From Candidatus Uhrbacteria bacterium (GTDB lineage Bacteria; Patescibacteriota; Patescibacteriia; JACQRZ01): a DNA stretch of 52,567 bases. Below, piece by piece: positions 1 to 8,278 of this stretch. Position numbers and translations under genes: made by a program. The notes below the pieces were generated by a model that worked only from the letters and a program-made list of their open reading frames with translations, was not told the DNA's origin and ran no database searches. The DNA is taken from positions 1 through 52,567 of the forward strand of contig JACQSC010000006.1 of assembly GCA_016206155.1 (NCBI GenBank), given 5' to 3'. Numbering within the stretch: position 1 is the stretch's first letter; each line of letters begins with the position of its first letter.

Positions 1-183
1 GGCATCATGTCTTGGATCATCAGAAAAGCCAGTTTCAATTAAAGCGGCTGCCCTTCTTTTTTCCTCAGCTTGCTCCGAGGTTAATCTTCCTGAAGCCTCC
101 ATTTTAACGAGCTCGTCATTTAGAGCTTTTTGAAATATATCCTTTGGCTGTTCTTGTGGTACTGGTGGTTGTTCAAAATTCAT
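1..183 (-). CDS. Hypothetical protein, 5' part only (MNFEQPPVPQEQPKDIFQKAL...); probable gene of a second integron cassette
   Basis: ATG at 183-181 with an open frame to the window edge. It follows an AT-rich leader that starts at the R' box of the attC-like site. Confidence 0.7.
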   Translation of the reverse strand, partial: MNFEQPPVPQEQPKDIFQKALNDELVKMEASGRLTSEQAEEKRRAAALIETGFSDDPRHDA

Positions 184-282
184 AGTTTTGTGTGATTAAT
201 TGATTATTATTTTCAAGTTATTCCGACCCCGAAAATTGCCAAAAAATTAAAATATAAATTGAGAGAGATTTTTGACTATTTC

Positions 283-409
283 CGATAACGTTCCTGCGTA
301 TGCGATGTTTGCCAGTGGTATAATTGCACGAAGTGCTTACCACTGGCAAATATGGGTGGAGGCTTGCGGAGGTACGGAGCAAGCCGTAACCGCATACGCA
401 GTGTTAGCT
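283..409 (-). mobile_element. attC-like recombination site
   Basis: Minus strand reads AGCTAAC-ac-TGCGTATGCG...CGCATACGCA-ggaac-GTTATCG (R''/R' boxes plus a 10-bp perfect inner stem at 295-304/391-400). The interior is branched, with hairpins at 308-320/338-350 and 361-367/379-385. Confidence 0.8.
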
Positions 410-478
410 GATGTATTCCTTTTCTTTTCCGACGATAGTCGGTTGTTTTAAAAATTTTCAAATTTCTTTTTCCGTTTT
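403..478. repeat. Left ~76-bp terminal inverted repeat of the 6-kb cassette (partner 6367-6443)
   Basis: GTTAGCT-gatg-TATTCCTTTTCTTTT-[CCGACGATAGTCGG]-TTGTTTTAAAAATTTTCAAATTTCTTTTTC aligns with the reverse complement of 6367-6443. Confidence 0.9.
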
Positions 479-591
479 GGGTGGCGGGCAGAGGGGAATT
501 AAAGGGGTGAATGCCCGCCACCCAAAACACTTATTCCTGGTTTGGGGAAGGGGCAAGAGGGGCTGGGGGTGAATTGCCCCTTCCCCAAACA
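474..591. repeat. Two tandem 17-bp perfect hairpins with related G-rich loops
   Basis: Arms at 474-490/512-528 and 540-556/575-591. Loops are GAGGGGAATTAAAGGGGTGAA and GAGGGGGCTGGGGGTGAA. Confidence 0.9.
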
Positions 592-593
592 TT

Positions 594-1562
594 TTATTCT
601 ACATCTTTTATTGATTGGAGGTCGATTTCCTTATTTCCAACCACGAGATTCTTTTTTGCAACCCATGTGAATCCTTTTTCTGGTGTGATAACAGCTACAT
701 CAACAGGACCGCCTACGCCTGGCATGTCGCCTGGGTCAAGGAGAATGCCGTCAGAAAATCTTTGTATAGCATTTGTTGTTTCGATTGATAGAACGCTAAA
801 ATCAATGCCATCTTGAAGAGTCATTGTTCCCCATTGAATATTATACTCTAGGGCTCCGAGTTGTTGTTTGACTCCTTGTTCTGTGAATTTTTGCGTAGCT
901 TCTTGTAGCATTGGAAGATTTCCCATCCGTGGGTCGAAGCCTAGGACGATTCTAGTCAAAACATCAGTTTGACCAATCCAACTAGCCCCATACTCTTTCC
1001 CTTTTTGTGTACTGTTTCTTAGCATTTCAACATCTCCAGGTACTGATACTTTGAAGGCTTGATGCGAATCATCACTGTTAAATCCTGAGACTATGAATTG
1101 TAGCTGATCGACATGTGCCATTCGTTCTTCTTCAATACCTTTTGGATTTTTGAATTTGAATTTTACTGCACCTTTTTCTTGTTTAATTTCTATGTCCTTA
1201 CAGCCTTGTCTTTCTAAATCAGCTCGAATTTGATCTGGTAACTTTTTTAGACCCTCTTTGTAATTGTACTTTTCTTCAAAGAAGTCTTGGAGTTTTTTGC
1301 TGATCTCTTCGATTGAGAGTTTTCGGATGTCGGCATGTTTTTTGAACTCTTCGATGAATCGGCTTACGTTTTTGAGCACGCCATTTTCTGGTAGAAAGGC
1401 CAGACCGGCGACTACTACTCCAACTTTTTTTCCGAGTTGAAATACTTTTGTTGCCGAGTCCGAGCCAATACGACTCATTCCTTTCATGTTTCTATAAGAT
1501 TGACGGCTATCAGCGGCTAATACCATTCCTTCAGGGGTGGTTGTGTTAATACAGAGACTCAT
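594..1562 (-). CDS. Proteasome-beta/HslV-like N-terminal-nucleophile (Ntn) hydrolase with Ser1
   Basis: N-terminus (M)SLCINTTTPEGMVLAADSR, downstream TKVF and VAG motifs, and C-terminal GGPVDVAVIT, all typical of the proteasome-type Ntn fold. Confidence 0.7.
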   Translation of the reverse strand: MSLCINTTTPEGMVLAADSRQSYRNMKGMSRIGSDSATKVFQLGKKVGVVVAGLAFLPENGVLKNVSRFIEEFKKHADIRKLSIEEISKKLQDFFEEKYNYKEGLKKLPDQIRADLERQGCKDIEIKQEKGAVKFKFKNPKGIEEERMAHVDQLQFIVSGFNSDDSHQAFKVSVPGDVEMLRNSTQKGKEYGASWIGQTDVLTRIVLGFDPRMGNLPMLQEATQKFTEQGVKQQLGALEYNIQWGTMTLQDGIDFSVLSIETTNAIQRFSDGILLDPGDMPGVGGPVDVAVITPEKGFTWVAKKNLVVGNKEIDLQSIKDVE

Positions 1563-1563
1563 A

Positions 1564-2199
1564 TTATTTTGATAGGTTAGTGATAATATAAATGGTGAAT
1601 AATAACGTACATGTTGCGATTATTGCCTTGTACTCTGGACCCATAAAAAATACGGAAGAGCCGAGTAAAACGATCGCACTTATTGTTAGTTCAGATTGCT
1701 TGTTTGCGGGGATATTTTTTAGGAGATCCAGTATCGGCGTTTTTTGGTGTGTGTACTTTTCTAAGGCAAGATTGATATAGCTCTGGACGATGTTTTGAAG
1801 TGTGTTGCTATCGAACTGTGTTCCCTCGATTTTAATCCTTGATTCGGCGTTATCCACACTATGGATTGGAGGAGTTAAGTTATTTTGGGGGCTACTTTCG
1901 CCCGTGAAGGTAAGGTTATTTGCAAATGATGTTTTGCTCGTATCGCCGACGATGGTATACGTTTCGAGTGGCTGTAATCCCAACTCTTTCAAAGCTCTAT
2001 AAGTCGGGATAACAGAACTGGTTTTAGCGCCTATTTGCGCAAGGTAGCCTTTCTTTACTAGCGATTCAATAGCCCTGAGAACGGAATTGTTGGCCGCCAC
2101 TTTAATTCCCTCAACCATTTCTCCCAATGTCGGAATAATGCCATTCTTTGCGTGGTATTTATGGATGAAAATAATTAGGTTTTTCTGATTCTCAGTCAT
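1564..2199 (-). CDS. LexA-type winged-helix DNA-binding protein with C-terminal transmembrane helices and no S24 peptidase domain
   Basis: MTENQKNLIIFIHKYHAKNGIIPTLGEMVEGIKVAANNSVLRAIESLVKKGYL matches the LexA DBD pattern, and there are two hydrophobic C-terminal segments. ATG 2199 is preferred over GTG 2223, which overlaps the predicted -10 region. Confidence 0.7.
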   Translation of the reverse strand: MTENQKNLIIFIHKYHAKNGIIPTLGEMVEGIKVAANNSVLRAIESLVKKGYLAQIGAKTSSVIPTYRALKELGLQPLETYTIVGDTSKTSFANNLTFTGESSPQNNLTPPIHSVDNAESRIKIEGTQFDSNTLQNIVQSYINLALEKYTHQKTPILDLLKNIPANKQSELTISAIVLLGSSVFFMGPEYKAIIATCTLLFTIYIITNLSK

Positions 2200-2221
2200 A
2201 ATGTCTTTTAAATCTGCATTC

Positions 2222-2251
2222 ACAATACACCGTTACTTTAGTAACGGTCAA
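2222..2251 (-). promoter_or_regulatory. Putative promoter (TTGACC-N18-TATTGT) overlapped by palindromic operator ACCGTTAC-N4-GTAACGGT
   Basis: Perfect 8-bp inverted repeat at 2229-2236/2241-2248, directly upstream of the LexA-like gene. Confidence 0.6.
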
Positions 2252-2260
2252 GTATTTTCC

Positions 2261-2269
2261 TGTGGATAA
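2261..2269 (-). promoter_or_regulatory. Perfect DnaA-box consensus (TTATCCACA)
   Basis: TGTGGATAA on the + strand in the res/LexA-like spacer. A second perfect copy lies at 1850-1858. Confidence 0.35.
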
Positions 2270-2281
2270 CTGAAAAATGGC

Positions 2282-4555
2282 TTATAAAGGCGTCAAATCC
2301 TTCAAAACCTCCTCCACATTCCCATTGTGCACCAAAAAGAAATGGAGTTTGCCCTTGCCGAGTTTTACCCATTCGTCGGCAATTTCTACTTTGTATCCGG
2401 TGTCCTCGTTGCTGATTCGGTCTTCGCCTTTCCATTCAAGGGCAACGATGTTTCCTTTTTTGGTGAGCCCAACAAAATCCGGGTAAAACTTGCCCTTTTT
2501 CCAGCCTTGAATAAAGAAAGGGTCTTGTTTTTCACGATTGCGAACCCAAAACTCAACATTCGGCAAGCTATCAAGGTCTAGACGTTCAACAAAACTCAAC
2601 TCCTCTTTGTTCAGCTTGTCGATTTTCTCGTAGTAATTTTTGTTGAACTCTTGCGGTATCTGCTCTTTGAGCGTGATTGTTTCCGGGAAGCTCTCAAATG
2701 TTTTGGTTGTAATCTTCTTTTTGGCTACAAGCTCGACAAAACGCTTTTTAGCATAGGCTTCAAGTACGCTGTTTATGGCCTCATTGAGTCGGTCGAGGAA
2801 TAAATACCGATTAACGGAAAGCTCAGCCAAAGATTTTTGCTTGAGTTGATAATCAACGGCTTTATCAATGAATTTTACCTTGTTCGGTTTATCGAGCAGG
2901 GTGAAGCGGAGCTTTTTATCAAGCCACTGCACCAACTCTTGTTTTGAAAAATTTTTGTCTCGGTAGGTTAGATTGAGAATTTGCTGTTTGCCTTTGTGCC
3001 ATTTGTTATCGTCTTCAATATCAATAATCGCTCGGCCGTCATTGTCGTAGTGGATTTCAAAGTCAAATTCGGCGTTTTGTTTTGCCAGTTCAAAATCTTC
3101 GCCAATCAGTTCCTCAAAAGTCAGTTTTTCGTCTTCCAAGCTCATCATCGGCACTGCAAAATCCTTTTTCACAGCGCGGTTTACTTCTTTTGGGTCTTTT
3201 GCGGTGTCTCCGTTTGATGAAGCGCCGATTAAATCCAGTTTACTGTATCCGTTTCTTTCCAGTCCTGAAATGATGTTGCTTGCCGCTTCATTGAAGTTTT
3301 TGGCGGAAGCAAAAATGTAAGAGCGGTTTAATGCCTCGTTTTTCTTTCGCTTGGCATACGGCATGCGAATAATACGCCCGATGATCTGCTCGACAGCAAT
3401 TTTTGCCCCGACATTGGCAACGGAAATGAGAACATAGGCAAAGGAACAGTCCCAACCCTCGGCGAGCGCACTAACGGTTATAATGTAGCGGATTTTGCAT
3501 TTTTTGCTGAACAAGTCTACGCCCTCAAGGTCGTTTCGGTCGGATGTTTTGATCGCAATTTCTTCTTCGGAGATTTTGGCGGAAAGCAAATACGCTTTGA
3601 TCTGTTCAACCGTCACGTTGTTTTGCGTTTTGCTCTTTGGCTGGGCTTGAATTAAAGCAATTGGACGGATATATTCGCCTGTATTTTTCTTGCCCTCTTT
3701 TTCAAGGTCGGCTCGTTTTTCAAGCCCGCGAGCAACGGCGTTTTGCCATTGGGCGGAGCTTTCAAGCACAAGCGGAATTTTTACCATTTGTTCGTCTTTG
3801 AGTTCAGCAGGGGAAATGTCCACCAAAATATTACTGCCGGAGCGTGGCGTTGCCGTGTATTCAATTACGAAACTTGGATTTAGGCTGTTGAGAAAATCTA
3901 TTGAAAGCTCGGTTTTGGTTTTATGCCCCTCATCAATCACCACAAGCGGATTACTCATACGGACGACATTTGCGAGCGAGTTTATGATTGTGCCTTCCTC
4001 GTCTTTTTCCAGATCGTCTCGGTCATCAAGGTTTTCAAAGTGGCTCAAGAGTGCGCCGTTTTCCTGATAGACTTTGTATTTCTTTTGGAGTGTTTTTTCT
4101 TTGCGGAAAGCCTCCAAGCTGGAAATGATAATGCAAAGATTGTCCTGAACATCCTCTTTTCTGATTCGTAATGCTTCCTCGTTTGAAAAAATACGTACGC
4201 CTTTTTGAAAAGCCTCGTCCAAAATCTGCCTGTGCCAGTCGTTACGGTCTTTAAACTTCTTGAGCGTTTGGGTTTTGATTGCCTCGGACGGCACAAACCA
4301 CATCACAATACCTCTATCCATTTTGTGCTTGAGGAAAGAGCGCATGATTTCGTTGACGGAATGACAGCCGACAAGCGTTTTTCCTCCGCCAGTCGGAATT
4401 TTGACGCAAACGAAAGGCACATCACCGAAAAAGTCGCCGTGATATGGCCGGTCAGTTTCGCCCATGAACGCATATTTTGGCCCGACGGCCTCTATGCCTT
4501 TGAGATAAGCCTTGAGCTTGTCTAGCGCTGATTGTTGATATTTTTTGAGTTCCAT
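2282..4555 (-). CDS. res: Type III restriction enzyme Res subunit (SF2 helicase plus PD-(D/E)XK nuclease)
   Basis: Motifs PTGGGKT, DEGH, TATP, AEGWD, QIIGRIIR and C-terminal FYPDF...LEWKG. Lies directly downstream of mod. Confidence 0.88.
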   Translation of the reverse strand: MELKKYQQSALDKLKAYLKGIEAVGPKYAFMGETDRPYHGDFFGDVPFVCVKIPTGGGKTLVGCHSVNEIMRSFLKHKMDRGIVMWFVPSEAIKTQTLKKFKDRNDWHRQILDEAFQKGVRIFSNEEALRIRKEDVQDNLCIIISSLEAFRKEKTLQKKYKVYQENGALLSHFENLDDRDDLEKDEEGTIINSLANVVRMSNPLVVIDEGHKTKTELSIDFLNSLNPSFVIEYTATPRSGSNILVDISPAELKDEQMVKIPLVLESSAQWQNAVARGLEKRADLEKEGKKNTGEYIRPIALIQAQPKSKTQNNVTVEQIKAYLLSAKISEEEIAIKTSDRNDLEGVDLFSKKCKIRYIITVSALAEGWDCSFAYVLISVANVGAKIAVEQIIGRIIRMPYAKRKKNEALNRSYIFASAKNFNEAASNIISGLERNGYSKLDLIGASSNGDTAKDPKEVNRAVKKDFAVPMMSLEDEKLTFEELIGEDFELAKQNAEFDFEIHYDNDGRAIIDIEDDNKWHKGKQQILNLTYRDKNFSKQELVQWLDKKLRFTLLDKPNKVKFIDKAVDYQLKQKSLAELSVNRYLFLDRLNEAINSVLEAYAKKRFVELVAKKKITTKTFESFPETITLKEQIPQEFNKNYYEKIDKLNKEELSFVERLDLDSLPNVEFWVRNREKQDPFFIQGWKKGKFYPDFVGLTKKGNIVALEWKGEDRISNEDTGYKVEIADEWVKLGKGKLHFFLVHNGNVEEVLKDLTPL

Positions 4556-4557
4556 AA

Positions 4558-6201
4558 TTAGTAGACTTTAACTTCGTAAGGAATTTGCTTGAAGATGATG
4601 CTGTGTTTCGCAAGTGTTGCCTCATCAAGCAAACATTTGTCGGCGTAAATTACTTTTGTGCCGTCGGTTTTTCGTAGCTTTTTCAAAAAGGATTTACTCA
4701 ATACATTTTCGCCCTTTTCTTTGTAGATCAGATAATACTCGGTTTCCGCATATTCGCCGATATAATTTCCCGATACTTTGGCAGGGTCTATGTTGGTTTG
4801 CGTTTCAGTAAAGTAAATGTAGGTTGCAAACTGGTCAAAGTCGCAAGTGTCCTCGATTTGACCTTCTTCATCAAAAAGTGGCTTGCTGAGTTCGCAATAC
4901 TCGAAGCCGTCGTCATATTTATTTTTCTGTATCGCATTTTTGATTCGGGTTGCCGTTATATCCTTCGCAATGTGATCTTCCATTTCAATAAGAATAAATT
5001 TTCTGGTTCCGCCGTCTTCCTTGTTTAAATCTAAAACTGCGTGACCTGTACTTCCAGAGCCAGCAAAAGAGTCTAAAATTATTTCATCTTCACCGCTTGT
5101 AGCAACCTTCAGAAGATGTTTAAGAAATGCGATTGGCTTTTTACCACTTCTAAAGTCAACACCACCTTCGTGTCGGCAATTACCAAAACTGTCTGCGAAA
5201 TTTTCAAAATTGACTATTGGAGCAAAGCGTTCGTTATCATCAGGATTTTCTAAAACTCTACTTGGTACGCCTTGATAGTACTTTCCTTTCGTTGCCCCGT
5301 CTCTTTTTGGGCCGGTGAAGTATCTATAATCAAACTGATCGTTCCCAATGCCGTAGACTTTATAGAGTACCCCAAGCCCATCCGCTTTGTATCTCCCAGC
5401 TAAATGATCTCTAAAGAAACGGCCTGATGAATTTATATCAAGAACTTTTCCAGTTGCCCAAATTTCCTTCAAACCTTTTTCTGATGGTTCGCCTTTTACG
5501 ATTTTGTAATCGTCTTTTTGAAAAATGGCGACTTTTTTCCCGCCCAAGTTTACAAATTTTGGCTCATTTATTTCTTCAATTTTCCAAATGAATTTATCAA
5601 GGCTGTAATCAATTTTTTGTTTGATTAATGTGGCTTTTGGGCTTTTTCTGTAAACCAAAGCAGTTTCAATAATTATTTGAAAGTCCGAATCTTCTACAAG
5701 TGTTTTTCCTGGATAGCGAACTTGATAGTAAAAGGGATACAAAAAATTTTCTTCACCGAAAATTTCGTCACACAATAGTTTTAAGGTTGACGCTTCGTTG
5801 TCATCTATACTTATAAAAATAAGACCATCTTCTCTCAAAAGTTCCCGTAGTAACTTTAGACGAGGATACATCATGCAAAGCCACTTGTCGTGTCTGCATA
5901 AATCTTCAGATTCTCTGCCCACGACTTTTCCAAGCCATTTCCGAATTTTTGGTGAATTTACTTTGTCATTATAAACCCACTGTTCGCTTCCTGTATTGTA
6001 TGGCGGATCAATGTAAATACATTTAACTTTGCCTGTATAATATGGCATTAGTGCTTTTAGGGCTTGCAGATTGTCGCCGTGCAAAATGAGATTTTGAGAA
6101 TTACCTACGGAAGCGGACTTAACTTTTTTGAGTAATCGAAAAGGAACCTCTTTGTCGTGGTTTACTACTGCTTCTTTTCCAATCCAGTTTAGTGTAGGCA
6201 T
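4558..6201 (-). CDS. mod: Type III R-M DNA adenine methyltransferase (Mod)
   Basis: GDNL...YIDPPYNTG (motif IV) precedes [10 protein letters not shown] (motif I), the beta-class order. Confidence 0.92.
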
Positions 6202-6255
6202 AAGCGTTTATCGTTTTTATTTCTGTTGTATTATAGCGCGTTAGCACTTCATATT

Positions 6256-6365
6256 AAATAAGGTTTTCGGAGCGACCAGCGGGAGCGGAGAAAACATCCT
6301 TATATTCCCCTCATCAAATAAATCGTTTCCGCAGTGTAGCGGAGGAAACACCATATTTCCCCTTA
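6256..6365. repeat. Two tandem imperfect hairpins, each followed by TATWTTCCCCT-like sequence
   Basis: AATAAGGTTTTC...GAAAACATCCTTATATT-CCCCT and AAATAAATCGTTTCCGC...GCGGAGGAAACACCATATTT-CCCCT. Confidence 0.6.
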
Positions 6366-6366
6366 T

Positions 6367-6443
6367 AAAATAGAAAAAGAAATTTGAAAATTTTTTAAAA
6401 CAAATGGGCGAAGCCCAAAAAGAAAAGGAATATTTTAGCTAAC
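6367..6443. repeat. Right ~77-bp terminal inverted repeat of the cassette (partner 403-478)
   Basis: Reverse complement is GTTAGCT-aaaa-TATTCCTTTTCTTTT-[TGGGCTTCGCCCA]-TTTGTTTTAAAAAATTTTCAAATTTCTTTTTC. Confidence 0.9.
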
Positions 6444-6460
6444 TCGTATTTATACGAAAT
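6432..6460 (-). mobile_element. attI-like site, crossover G|TTAGCT at 6443/6442
   Basis: Minus strand ATTTCGTATAA-ATACGAG-TTAGCTAAAAT has the TAA-N7-TTA simple-site geometry of attI1. It lies ~100 bp upstream of the divergent integrase. Confidence 0.7.
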
Positions 6461-6483
6461 AAGTGATAAAATATGATGAATAT

Positions 6484-6512
6484 TTGTACATTATCTGAAC
6501 TTATTGTATAAT
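6484..6512 (+). promoter_or_regulatory. Sigma70-type promoter for the integrase
   Basis: TTGTAC-N17-TATAAT, 30 bp before ATG 6543. Confidence 0.65.
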
Positions 6513-6542
6513 CATACTATTCGACATTAGCATCAATATATC

Positions 6543-7370
6543 ATGGATGATGCCAGCATACAACAGGCGCTCCGGCAGACCGATGACCTTCTACGATTAC
6601 GGAATTACAGCCGCAGGACGCGAGATGCGTACCAGAATTGTTTACGCGCCTACCTTCGTCACAAAGACGCATCAGCGCAGGTATGTAGTCCCGAGAATGT
6701 GGGAGCTTTTTTGATGGCTCTTTATGATCGCGGGGCGGCTTCGCAGACGGTTACGCTTCATTTTCATGCTATCCGTTTCTACTATCGCGACGTACTTGGA
6801 CAGACGGTTCATATTCCATGGAAAACACCCAAACGCCCACAACGCTTGCCAGTTATTCTTTCGCGCGATGAAGTCGAACACCTTCTTAGTGTTGTTAAAA
6901 ATAAAAAACATTATCTCGTCCTTGCGCTTTCCTACGGCGCCGGTTTGCGCGTCAGTGAAGCGATTAGTCTTCATGTAGGTGATATTGATCTCGATGAACT
7001 TGTTGTCACCATTCGACAATCAAAGGGGAGGAAAGATCGTCGTACCGTGTTGCCCGAGAAATTAAAAAACGATCTGCGCTCGCTGATAGCCGGACGTGAG
7101 TCACATGAATATCTTTTTGAAAGCAATCGCGGTGGGAAATTACATGAACGCAGTGCGCAAAAACTGTTTGATGATTCCCTGAAATCCTCGGGCATCAAAA
7201 AAGATGCCTCATTCCACTCCCTCCGACATTCATTCGCGACACATTTGCTGGAAAATGGCGTGGACGTTCGCTACGTGCAGGAGCTCCTCGGTCATGCGAA
7301 TATCCGCACGACGCAAATCTATACTCATCTTACGAATCCAGCATTGAAAAATATCAAAAGCCCGCTATGA
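6543..7370 (+). CDS. Integron-integrase-like tyrosine recombinase, short form without the I2 insertion
   Basis: SAM-like N-terminus (LRNYSRRT...Y), LPVILS, YGAGLRVSE, KGRKDR, HSLRHSFATHLLE, LLGH...TTQIYTH and C-terminal SPL. All catalytic R-K-H-R-H-Y residues are present. Confidence 0.88.
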   Translation: MDDASIQQALRQTDDLLRLRNYSRRTRDAYQNCLRAYLRHKDASAQVCSPENVGAFLMALYDRGAASQTVTLHFHAIRFYYRDVLGQTVHIPWKTPKRPQRLPVILSRDEVEHLLSVVKNKKHYLVLALSYGAGLRVSEAISLHVGDIDLDELVVTIRQSKGRKDRRTVLPEKLKNDLRSLIAGRESHEYLFESNRGGKLHERSAQKLFDDSLKSSGIKKDASFHSLRHSFATHLLENGVDVRYVQELLGHANIRTTQIYTHLTNPALKNIKSPL

Positions 7371-8278
7371 CGCACCGCATCATCTTTATGGGAACTCCCG
7401 ATTATGCAGCTCAATATCTTGAGGGATTGATTTTTTCTGGCTACAAACCGATTGCCGTTATCACCCAGCCGGATAGGCCAGCGGGGCGCGCGCAAACCGT
7501 TGAGGCAACGCCCGTAAAACGCACTGCAGAGAGAAATAATATTCCCGTCCATCAGCCAGAGGATATTCGCGATCCTCAATGGACAAAAAAGATTCAAGAA
7601 CTCAAACCCGACCTTATTGTTGTCGTAGCCTTTGGTCAAATCATTCCCCAATCAATCCTGACTATCCCGTCAAAAGGGTGTATCAATGTTCATCCCTCGC
7701 TCCTTCCCCGCCATCGCGGCGCAACGCCGTGGCAGGAAACAATTTTGCAGGGCGATGCAACAACCGGTGTCACCATTATGCTTATGGATGAGAAAATGGA
7801 TCACGGCCCGATTCTGTCACAAGAAGGGGTCGACGTCGCTCCTGACGAGACGACGAAATCGCTTGAGGACAAAACAGCCGCTATTGGCATTCCCCTTCTC
7901 ATCGGCACGCTTACGCGGTGGTTTGCGGGAACTGTCACCCCTGCAGAGCAACATCACGACCAGGCGACATATACACGACTGCTAAAAAAGGAATCGGGAC
8001 GAATTGATTGGTCAAAATGTCCCGTTGAGATCGATCGTATGATCCGTGCGCTCAACCCTTGGCCGGGCGCCTGGACCGAGTGGCATGGCAAGCGCATAAA
8101 AATTCTAAAAGCCCATCTCGATGAGCAGAACGATTTGATCGTCGATGAACTACAGCCGGAGGGGAAAAAATCAATGGATGCCAAAACCTTCAGGAATGGA
8201 TACTGTCAAGGCGCTCAGAAAGAACAGCCACTATCATCACTATTCCAATCCCAAGCGGATGGTTCAAGTAAGGAGTAA
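7367..8278 (+). CDS. fmt: Methionyl-tRNA formyltransferase
   Basis: IIFMGTPDYA, INVHPSLLPRHRGATP, MDHGPI, IRALNPWPGA. ATGA overlap with the integrase stop. Confidence 0.95.
   Translation: MTHRIIFMGTPDYAAQYLEGLIFSGYKPIAVITQPDRPAGRAQTVEATPVKRTAERNNIPVHQPEDIRDPQWTKKIQELKPDLIVVVAFGQIIPQSILTIPSKGCINVHPSLLPRHRGATPWQETILQGDATTGVTIMLMDEKMDHGPILSQEGVDVAPDETTKSLEDKTAAIGIPLLIGTLTRWFAGTVTPAEQHHDQATYTRLLKKESGRIDWSKCPVEIDRMIRALNPWPGAWTEWHGKRIKILKAHLDEQNDLIVDELQPEGKKSMDAKTFRNGYCQGAQKEQPLSSLFQSQADGSSKE

Follow-up and report, generated by a model that had tools for sequence, protein, structure and literature searches.

The stretch of DNA described here, referred to as the window, consists of 52,567 nucleotides from a Candidatus Uhrbacteria bacterium, a tiny groundwater member of the Patescibacteria or candidate phyla radiation (CPR) (GenBank assembly GCA_016206155.1, contig JACQSC010000006.1, here called C3). 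The source genome amounts to 913,686 bp in 10 contigs; the window is the start of contig C3, and its 5' edge coincides with the contig end. Close to that edge lie the parts of a system resembling an integron. The gene for a tyrosine recombinase of 275 amino acids, related to the integron integrase IntI and lacking its I2 insertion, occupies 6543..7370 on the plus strand. An attI-like site (6437..6460, minus strand) is found just upstream of it, followed in the opposite direction by an unusually large cassette of 6.15 kb (cassette 1; 289-6442, minus strand) and by the attC-like site that closes this cassette (283..409, minus strand). On its other side the recombinase gene meets fmt (7367..8278, plus strand; Pfam Formyl_trans_N 6.7e-45), part of the chromosomal flank. 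Very probably, the locus belongs to a sedentary, chromosomal platform of integron-like type in Candidatus Uhrbacteria and represents the end of it that lies nearest the integrase.

An integron of this kind had been proposed in an earlier note on the same DNA. The hallmarks of the integrase on which that proposal relied can all be read in the sequence: a SAM-like N-terminus (PF13495, 2.7e-11), the motif LPVILS at residue 102, SPL at the C-terminal end, and the segment YLF-ESNRGGKL-HER, in which 8 residues separate YLF from HER. The protein matches Pfam Phage_integrase at 3.3e-44, and the catalytic residues R136, H225-x-x-R228, H251 and Y260 are all present, as judged from motif position and alignment. 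Among NCBIfam models, the integron integrase model TIGR02249 gives 224.2 bits, XerA (NF040815) gives 212 bits against a cutoff of 220, and XerD/XerC give 181. Canonical IntI proteins of planctomycetes reach 330-497 bits on TIGR02249. Since the cutoff of this model is 265, an IntI-specific profile would likely miss the recombinase, as the note had foreseen.

Comparison with solved structures and with other sequences bears out the lack of the I2 insertion. The best relative of known structure is VchIntIA/IntI4 (2a3v, 3.2e-42), and archaeal XerA is matched at 6.5e-40 and 1.2e-38. The alignment to IntI4 falls into two pieces, query 10-198 on chain 6-199 and query 199-275 on chain 241-317, and about 41 residues of IntI4 have no counterpart in the recombinase. 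In an alignment of 16 sequences, extra segments of about 30 and about 12 residues are present in IntI1 and in four planctomycete IntIs; they are absent from seven of seven CPR proteins and from Xer. The same alignment contains features common to the CPR proteins and IntI and not found in Xer, namely YSxRT, RLPV(I/V)L, KGxKDR and the C-terminal SPL.

A similar picture emerges from a tree of 50 proteins built by maximum likelihood. Nineteen CPR recombinases and 12 IntI proteins are split from 19 Xer proteins with support of 100/100. Among the Xer proteins are those of E. coli, XerC and XerD, and a second recombinase of the source genome. Canonical IntIs were taken from 14 loci of Planctomycetota, 11 with a usable open frame and three without (L088, L098, L099), and one CPR locus (L021), whose match is in two pieces, was omitted from the tree. 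The IntI clade is supported at 100/100 and the monophyly of the CPR group is weak (77/41), so IntI may be sister to the CPR group or nested within it. The second recombinase, encoded on contig C9, scores 227.6 and 222.9 bits with XerD/XerC and 92.7 with the IntI model.

Database names point in the same direction. In a plasmid collection, the specifically named relatives of the recombinase are IntI1 and IntI2, with two generically named recombinases scoring higher. A homologue search with IntI1 itself returned only close IntI1 relatives of at least 74% identity. Some of the homologues are called "site-specific tyrosine recombinase/integron integrase" in NCBI annotation, so that the protein similarity to IntI has already been caught by automated means. 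The CPR recombinases are probably the same protein family as the "Cand" subgroup, the Xer-related simple tyrosine recombinases of candidate phyla (Smyshlyaev et al. 2021, PMC8138268). The available portion of that paper places "Cand" among recombinases specific to certain classes, which may make up for Xer function, and does not mention sites or arrays.

The attI-like site is read at 6460-6437 on the minus strand as ATTTCGTATAAATACGAG/TTAGCT, where the slash marks the presumed crossover within GTT (6443-6441). The G of this GTT, at 6443, lies 100 bp before the ATG of the recombinase gene, the distance that had been given before. Related genomes vary at this point. The two closest relatives (L003 and L004), whose recombinases are 91% and 85% identical to that of the window, are homologous to it from the recombinase gene to ...TACGAGTT, and there the homology ends. 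In 13 of 20 loci a motif TTCG.ATA.A.ACGAG/TT precedes the recombinase match by 101-168 bp, and two of the seven loci without it have too little upstream sequence. The contigs of many relatives stop 40-340 bp upstream of the recombinase gene, a pattern to be expected where assemblies are broken by arrays that are variable or repeated.

The attC-like site at 283..409 scores 90 bits (E 5e-16) with a covariance model built for such sites. Read along the minus strand, its parts are R'' (409-403), the L'' arm (401-391), an inner hairpin (385-379/367-361), the sequence CCCATATT (356-349), a second hairpin (350-338/320-308), the L' arm (304-294), GAAC, and the R' box GTTATCG (289-283). On the plus strand R' reads CGATAAC (283-289) and R'' reads GTTAGCT (403-409). 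The minus-strand form of R'', AGCTAAC, is complementary at seven of seven positions to the GTTAGCT on the attI side and at four of seven to its present neighbour GTTATCG, exactly the offset to which the note had drawn attention.

The general plan of these sites can be derived from an alignment of 17 sites from 10 sequence sources. It is ACATC-nnnTAAC-A-11-bp stem (nnGnnTATGCG)-GTT-hairpin-CCCATATT-hairpin-AAC AT-(CGCATAnnCnn)-GAAC-GTTAnnn-GAAAT. Compensatory changes are seen in 10 of the 11 stem pairs among the 17 sites. Of the stem cells, 96% are paired, compared with 76% in shuffles and 19-48% with slid partners, in a test that is partly circular because the 17 seed sites came from a palindrome scan. 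Among 132 sites, the GAAAT after R' is conserved at 71-92% position by position.

Two details of the first description have to be revised in view of this plan. The stem 294-304/391-401, which had been taken for an L box, is the covarying stem of 11 bp that separates the R box from the element TATGCG.GTT/AAC.AT.CGCATA. The statement that there is no obvious extrahelical base was too strong: an internal loop of one nucleotide against four (A vs GAAC) adjoins the R box and is conserved, as is a G.T position, and CCCATATT is conserved and unpaired between the two inner hairpins. That the attC grammar is unlike the classical one remains correct, given the paired 11-bp stem, a three-way junction and pairing that continues past the R box. 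Both strands of the window site fold beyond shuffled sequences (z -6.2 and -6.4, none of 200 shuffles doing as well), and each forms a three-way junction. In each of three sites folded, slightly greater stability is found for the strand that is complementary to the genes of the cassette.

The covariance model is specific to loci of this type. In 1.22 Mb it gives 35 matches at E<=1, all of them in CPR recombinase loci or in the contig of the source genome that carries the array, and none in 61 loci of other recombinases. In the 913,686-bp source genome, eight of eight matches fall inside the array. Nothing significant is found in 16 loci comprising 14 canonical planctomycete IntI loci, one IntI1 locus and one other plasmid locus. 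Altogether the model has 132 matches in 30 loci (L104, a duplicate of L006, being omitted), and within every locus they are confined to a single strand. No Rfam family is detected at gathering thresholds in the window or in C1:1-20000.

The window site is nearly identical to L018:770-910, although the recombinase of L018 is about 52% identical and its cargo differs. Such near-identity suggests that sites or cassettes have been exchanged between lineages that are far apart. A further site of the same type lies at L118:8973-9113.

Further sites past the left edge of the window had been anticipated, and they are present. Contig C1 of the source genome opens with an array of like sites in matching orientation, C1 forward being equivalent to C3 backward in the direction of the array. 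At least seven further sites can be recognised on C1, at 7-143, 1401-1595, 4421-4520, 4545-4679, 5184-5401 (weak), 5417-5551, 6089-6203 and 7352-7486. A palindrome scan of the whole genome found sites at C3:283-409 and at the start of C1, together with three unrelated palindromes elsewhere. All plausible genes of the C1 array read along the array direction. The cargo includes an N6/N4 methyltransferase accompanied by unknown open reading frames (ORFs), a DUF805 protein, a Nudix hydrolase, and HicA with a partner, and two units are "empty", consisting of a site alone. A 135-nt repeat class (L083:7-143, 4545-4679, 5417-5551 and 7352-7486) has two nested candidate R'' boxes; the inner is the one aligned by the model, and the outer pairs perfectly with the start of its own unit, as in empty cassettes.

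The chromosomal setting can be read from both flanks. The stop codon of the recombinase gene (7368-7370) and the ATG of fmt (7367) overlap as ATGA, which agrees with the coupling claimed earlier, and the array on C1 terminates at def-priA. Three of three tested relatives, which yielded neither the recombinase nor the sites, have def and fmt at a spacing of 27-86 bp. The two genes lie on separate contigs in the two integron-bearing genomes that were tested, the source genome and a second one of the same family. Because def and fmt are adjacent in relatives without the platform and apart here, the whole platform sits between them. The def-fmt junction of the three relatives is the empty site of the platform.

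Several tests of the cassette model, independent of the way in which the sites were found, concern the two ends of each cassette, which are tied by base pairing. These tests, and those of cassette form, use the 132 model matches in 30 loci. In 45 of 103 neighbour pairs the R'' 4-mer is fully complementary to the R' of the preceding site (mean 2.96 of 4). With its own R', R'' is fully complementary in 9 of 131 cases (mean 1.98), and random pairing in 2000 shuffles yields a mean of 1.96 (sd 0.10), with 7.6 perfect pairs on average and a maximum of 22. The offset that was taken as the signature of an integrated cassette is therefore family-wide, at 45 pairs against about 8 by chance.

The complementarity extends beyond the R box. 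When the 20 nt that follow R' at the start of a cassette are set against the 20 nt that precede its R'', 14 or more are complementary in 35 of 102 cassettes, compared with 2 of 132 own-site pairs and a random maximum of 6. Cassettes with this outer stem include single-gene and empty units, and the stem has a conserved mispair, GAAAT opposite ACATC. Pairing over about 20 nt past the R box suggests that crossover would take place inside a long hairpin.

An example of compensatory change at a distance can be found in two genomes that share one cassette (L103:5313-6259 and L107:1539-2486, 87% identical) behind differing upstream sites. In one genome the cassette starts with GTTAAAT and has ATTTAAC as its R'' at a distance of about 1 kb; in the other, the start is GTTATCA and the R'' is TGATAAC. 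The R' triplets AAT and TCA are thus matched by ATT and TGA in R'', and homology between the two copies begins just past the R' box. The units as a whole have the form expected of gene cassettes. Their median length is 916 bp (quartiles 671-1301, range 117-7074), and among the 92 that contain an ORF, the longest one follows the common direction in 90. Restriction-modification systems, HicAB and Nudix are among their cargo.

The longest case of the outer stem is in the window itself, where a 76-bp inverted repeat joins the two ends of cassette 1. One arm lies at the 3' end of the cassette (403..478) and the other at its 5' end (6367..6443); they were detected by a repeat search, and blastn aligns them at 78% over 77 nt. 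Inverted repeats next to a tyrosine recombinase gene could also mean that 403-6443 is an invertible segment, or a non-autonomous transposon with 76-bp terminal inverted repeats, the palindrome being incidental. A weak joint from 429 to 6418 among the contigs of two groundwater sequencing runs would fit inversion, with 26 letters on its shorter side; this joint was not used as evidence. The explanation is nevertheless very improbable. End-to-end complementarity in the register of the R box is general among the cassettes tested, and for this reason the invertible segment or transposon was rejected. Moreover, the repeat of the window starts exactly at R'' and R', like ends flank a different restriction-modification system on C1 in array orientation, and no inverted form is found among the listed contig joints.

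It might also be supposed that the palindromes are ordinary intergenic repeats of the repetitive extragenic palindromic (REP) type, or terminators, and that the recombinase is an unrelated neighbour. They do follow genes, fold stably and recur within the genome. Against this, they are confined to one region of the source genome, as the eight matches show, and they interrupt def-fmt. Their position and strand are tied to the recombinase: in each of the 21 loci listed (20 genomes, both within about 10 kb; a manual count among the rows listed) they are upstream of it and read from the other strand. The offset rule holds for them as well, and gene-less "empty" units exist among them. Repeats or terminators of this kind are the least probable account of the locus. 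A chance palindrome or terminator was likewise rejected, on the array-only matches of the model, the z-scores of folding and the offset rule.

The system is not limited to one genome. In an even sample at class level, with thresholds of E<=1e-50 for the recombinase and E<=1e-3 for the sites, the recombinase occurs in 59 of 151 genomes (about 39%) and the sites in 77 of 150. A cross-tabulation, made by hand like the count of 21 loci, gives 52 genomes with both, 7 with the recombinase only, 25 with sites only and about 66 with neither. In a phylum-wide sample, at the same E<=1e-50, the recombinase is present in 38 of 301 genomes, 34 of these in other classes. Archaeal XerA, which is similar in length, is a chromosome-dimer resolvase acting at dif, and unlike such Xer/dif housekeeping the recombinase described here is not near-universal. 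A housekeeping Xer with its dif at the position of attI was rejected because the recombinase is patchy and a second, more Xer-like gene is present in the genome. In four cases (L004, L014, L013 and L009), contigs bearing a CPR-type recombinase and fmt are binned as Gammaproteobacteria, Caldisericia or Gracilibacteria; these are probably mis-binned contigs of Patescibacteria.

Five of the genomes with sites only were inspected: one has a split recombinase gene and four have Xer-like genes only. Split recombinases and arrays without a recombinase have parallels in degraded integrons and integrase-less arrays. The split gene (L108; G067, C18, 122103-123912) lies beside its array as two fragments, separated by about 1 kb and containing a single TAG, and appears to be a disrupted integrase. 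A second example, G027, is a nearly complete genome of three contigs in which 21 site matches are found on one strand over about 45 kb (L109-L111; C1, about 228-271 kb). Its sole recombinase match is an Xer-like gene about 120 kb away, so that a large array exists there without a cognate integrase.

The locus can also be found in four groundwater runs of one study, as short assembled contigs, which drop rare forms. Some of these community contigs match the start of cassette 1 as far as 6443/6444 and then enter other sequences, two at the least, among them one that resembles an attC in its 3' half. Others diverge at 285. Their summed depth peaks at 285-568 and 6249-6532, at the ends of the cassette, as would fit if these ends were used again in different contexts and perhaps in different organisms. 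Gaps in the cover of the locus by these contigs carry no weight.

A mechanism can be proposed for the system. Cassettes would be inserted one after another at the attI site beside the recombinase, reading away from it. A cassette would be excised as a circle, in which R'' and R' and about 20 bases on each side could pair into a long imperfect hairpin, the R''-R' helix being extended by the 11-bp stem on the inside and by the outer stem on the outside. One folded strand may then be recombined with attI at G/TT by the recombinase, as in classical integrons. In the latter, extrahelical bases together with helix I2 set the choice of strand. Here, this role may instead fall to mispairs that are conserved, namely AA facing CA next to the R box, the internal loop of one nucleotide against four, and the G.T position. 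Each of these differs between the strands, since AA/CA becomes TT/TG on the other strand and G.T becomes C.A, and the A/GAAC loop differs too.

Many features of the system are shared with classical integrons. The integrase gene diverges from an oriented array and has attI immediately upstream. Imperfect palindromes with ...TAAC and GTTA... at their borders make up the sites; crossover is presumed at G/TT, and R'' matches the R' at the start of its own cassette. The cassettes are about 0.9 kb long, mostly single-gene and co-directional, and carry toxin-antitoxin and restriction-modification cargo. Integrase-less arrays exist in both, and the recombinase groups with IntI against XerC/D. Differences are found in the enzyme, which has no I2 or additional domain and lies under the TIGR02249 cutoff, and above all in the site. 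A classical attC has an unpaired central spacer, an L box with extrahelical bases, and an R box at the base of the hairpin. In the CPR sites, an 11-bp covarying stem lies between the R box and the inner element; the inner motifs TATGCG.GTT and CCCATATT and the flanking ACATC/GAAAT are conserved; and the molecule folds as a three-way junction. Pairing continues for about 20 and up to 76 nt past the R box, which would place the crossover inside the hairpin and not at its base. The system thus seems to work like an integron, yet it falls outside IntI on two criteria of membership and differs in the architecture of its sites.

Similarities can also be found to elements that use the Xer system. In the CTX phage, Xer recombination acts on folded single-stranded DNA and leads to integration at dif. 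Like CTX and other integrative mobile elements exploiting Xer recombination (IMEX), the CPR system has a recombinase of Xer size without I2 that appears to use a duplex-mimicking hairpin, and its elements gather at one chromosomal site. Unlike them, it relies on a dedicated, patchy recombinase gene beside the array instead of the housekeeping Xer pair, and it holds small promoter-poor cassettes rather than phages, in arrays of at least 21 sites. The pdif modules of Acinetobacter plasmids are small toxin-antitoxin or resistance modules between inverted recombinase sites. They differ in that they are served by the XerC/D of the host, at duplex sites of alternating orientation, and form no ordered array beside a dedicated recombinase.

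In one more explanation, an Xer-like enzyme acts on duplex dif-like sites and elements pile up as in IMEX or pdif, with no folded single strand. The Xer length of the recombinase, its lack of I2 and an XerA score near its IntI score (212 vs 224 bits) would be consistent with this, as would the classification of candidate-phyla recombinases as Xer-related in the available part of Smyshlyaev et al. 2021 (PMC8138268). The attI site resembles the L'-R' half of attC (TTCGCATAGAAACGA/GTTA vs ATCGCATAnnCnnGAAC/GTTA), so that duplex recombination between direct repeats is conceivable. However, exchange at a duplex R' half provides no reason for the other half of the palindrome, which is strictly kept. 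It also gives none for compensatory changes in 10 of 11 stem pairs, for the tracking of the R' at the cassette start by R'' over about 1 kb, or for outer complementarity over 20 nt. The spread in class (59/151) and phylum (38/301) is patchy, and the separate XerD/C-like gene in the same genome speaks against a housekeeping role. Such stacking of elements on duplex sites is improbable.

The integron-like reading of the locus leads to a broader proposal, held here with even confidence. Patescibacteria would own a widespread class of integrons, whose I2-less integrases are a sister group or ancestral grade to all classical IntI. Capture of cassettes by way of a folded single strand would not depend on I2 and would predate it, with strand and register read from a long mispaired hairpin and crossover in its middle.

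Several observations weigh against the integron-like reading of the locus itself. The recombinase is under the TIGR02249 cutoff (224.2 vs 265), its match to the model is split in two stretches, and the tree on which its kinship is judged was made without archaeal XerA and other small recombinase groups. As far as the available parts of Ghaly et al. 2022 and Smyshlyaev et al. 2021 (PMC8138268) go, the additional domain of IntI is termed defining and necessary for integron recombination, and the recombinase does not have it. Among the genomes, 25 of 77 with sites have no recombinase at E<=1e-50; all are metagenome bins and mutually related, and the counts taken from them are not independent. The pairing of the seed sites is partly a matter of construction, the offset and outer-stem tests being independent of the palindrome scan. 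One restriction-modification cassette on C1 breaks the offset rule (2/4). No recombination event is seen directly: in the four runs of short contigs, neither a circle joint (6442 to 289) nor an empty-attI joint is found among the listed joints, 128 loose ends lying outside that list. Finally, the physical join of C3 to C1 is deduced and is not assembled.

Cassette 1 carries a type III restriction-modification system and two further genes, all on the minus strand. The first gene (4558..6201) encodes the DNA methyltransferase Mod (Pfam N6_N4_Mtase 4.8e-31), and the second (2282..4555) the Res subunit, a helicase-nuclease (Pfam ResIII 1.3e-14). The third (1564..2223) encodes 219 amino acids with a LexA-type winged-helix N-terminus (Pfam LexA_DNA_bind 3.2e-06) and a hydrophobic C-terminus, read from the translation. 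The fourth (594..1562) encodes 322 amino acids whose N-terminus weakly resembles proteasome or Ntn-hydrolase proteins (Pfam Proteasome E 0.0013, below the cutoff). Genes 3 and 4 could be accessory to the restriction-modification system or a separate defence module. None of the four proteins is found in the loci of 19 relatives. The restriction-modification cassette on C1 has ends homologous to those of cassette 1 and different cargo.

The cassette also has signals of its own. A promoter-like site lies upstream of mod (6230..6257, minus strand; TTAATA-16-TATAAT, 10/12, by consensus match only), and a terminator-like hairpin (6417-6405) lies inside the 5' arm of the 76-bp repeat; with these two signals, cassette 1 may be expressed independently of the platform. 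After its last gene, an inverted-repeat search found two perfect 17-bp hairpins (474-490/512-528 and 540-556/574-590; 474..590, minus strand), which look like terminators. The recombinase gene has a promoter-like site at 6485..6512 on the plus strand (TGTACA-16-TATAAT, 10/12, likewise a consensus match only). Beyond the attC-like site a second cassette begins. Its 5' leader (184..288, minus strand) starts with TTATCG GAAAT as read from the sequence, and the N-terminal part of its ORF (1..183, minus strand; no Pfam match) runs off the contig end. The sequence expected for the end of this cassette, whose R'' the note had predicted to be close to CGATAAC, is found nowhere in the assembly and falls in the gap.

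Other contig ends have features of their own. In G000, the 3' ends of C1 and C10 and the 5' end of C2 carry runs of GGGGTTA/GGGTTTA-like heptamers with an inverted repeat around AGTAATACTAAC. These repeats are telomere-like in look, though the genome is bacterial. The 3' end of C10 overlaps the 5' end of C2, just upstream of an apparent ribosomal protein gene. On contig C7 (4,235 bp), about 100 bases near the start are repeated near the end, and the reverse complement of the C7 start is found at the 3' end of C8; this may reflect a small circular element or a repeat that breaks the assembly.

No description of integrons, attC arrays or cassette recombinases in Patescibacteria or CPR was found in the searchable literature, and the IntegronFinder 2.0 paper, in the part available, does not mention Patescibacteria.

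The main significance of the locus is that a full integron architecture is paired here with a recombinase lacking the supposedly defining domain, and that about 39% of the genomes sampled from one class of Patescibacteria have this recombinase, which is found in other classes besides. The standard tool for integron detection keys on the IntI-specific domain. If the system works as proposed, integrons reach the candidate phyla radiation, and surveys keyed on that domain would probably under-count them. If the broader proposal is also true, a large cassette metagenome, including defence systems, would exist in the smallest bacterial genomes, probably unreported as complete integrons.

The system also provides a natural experiment on the origin of IntI from Xer-like enzymes and on the real need for I2; should the broader proposal hold, the transition from Xer to IntI would have a model in organisms alive today. 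Its sites would represent a new type of structure-specific recombination site, with crossover inside a long hairpin. For the organisms themselves, it means that bacteria with genomes of about 1 Mb keep a dedicated platform for capturing genes, among them restriction-modification, toxin-antitoxin and unknown genes, a platform that bears on how these symbionts face phages and swap genes.

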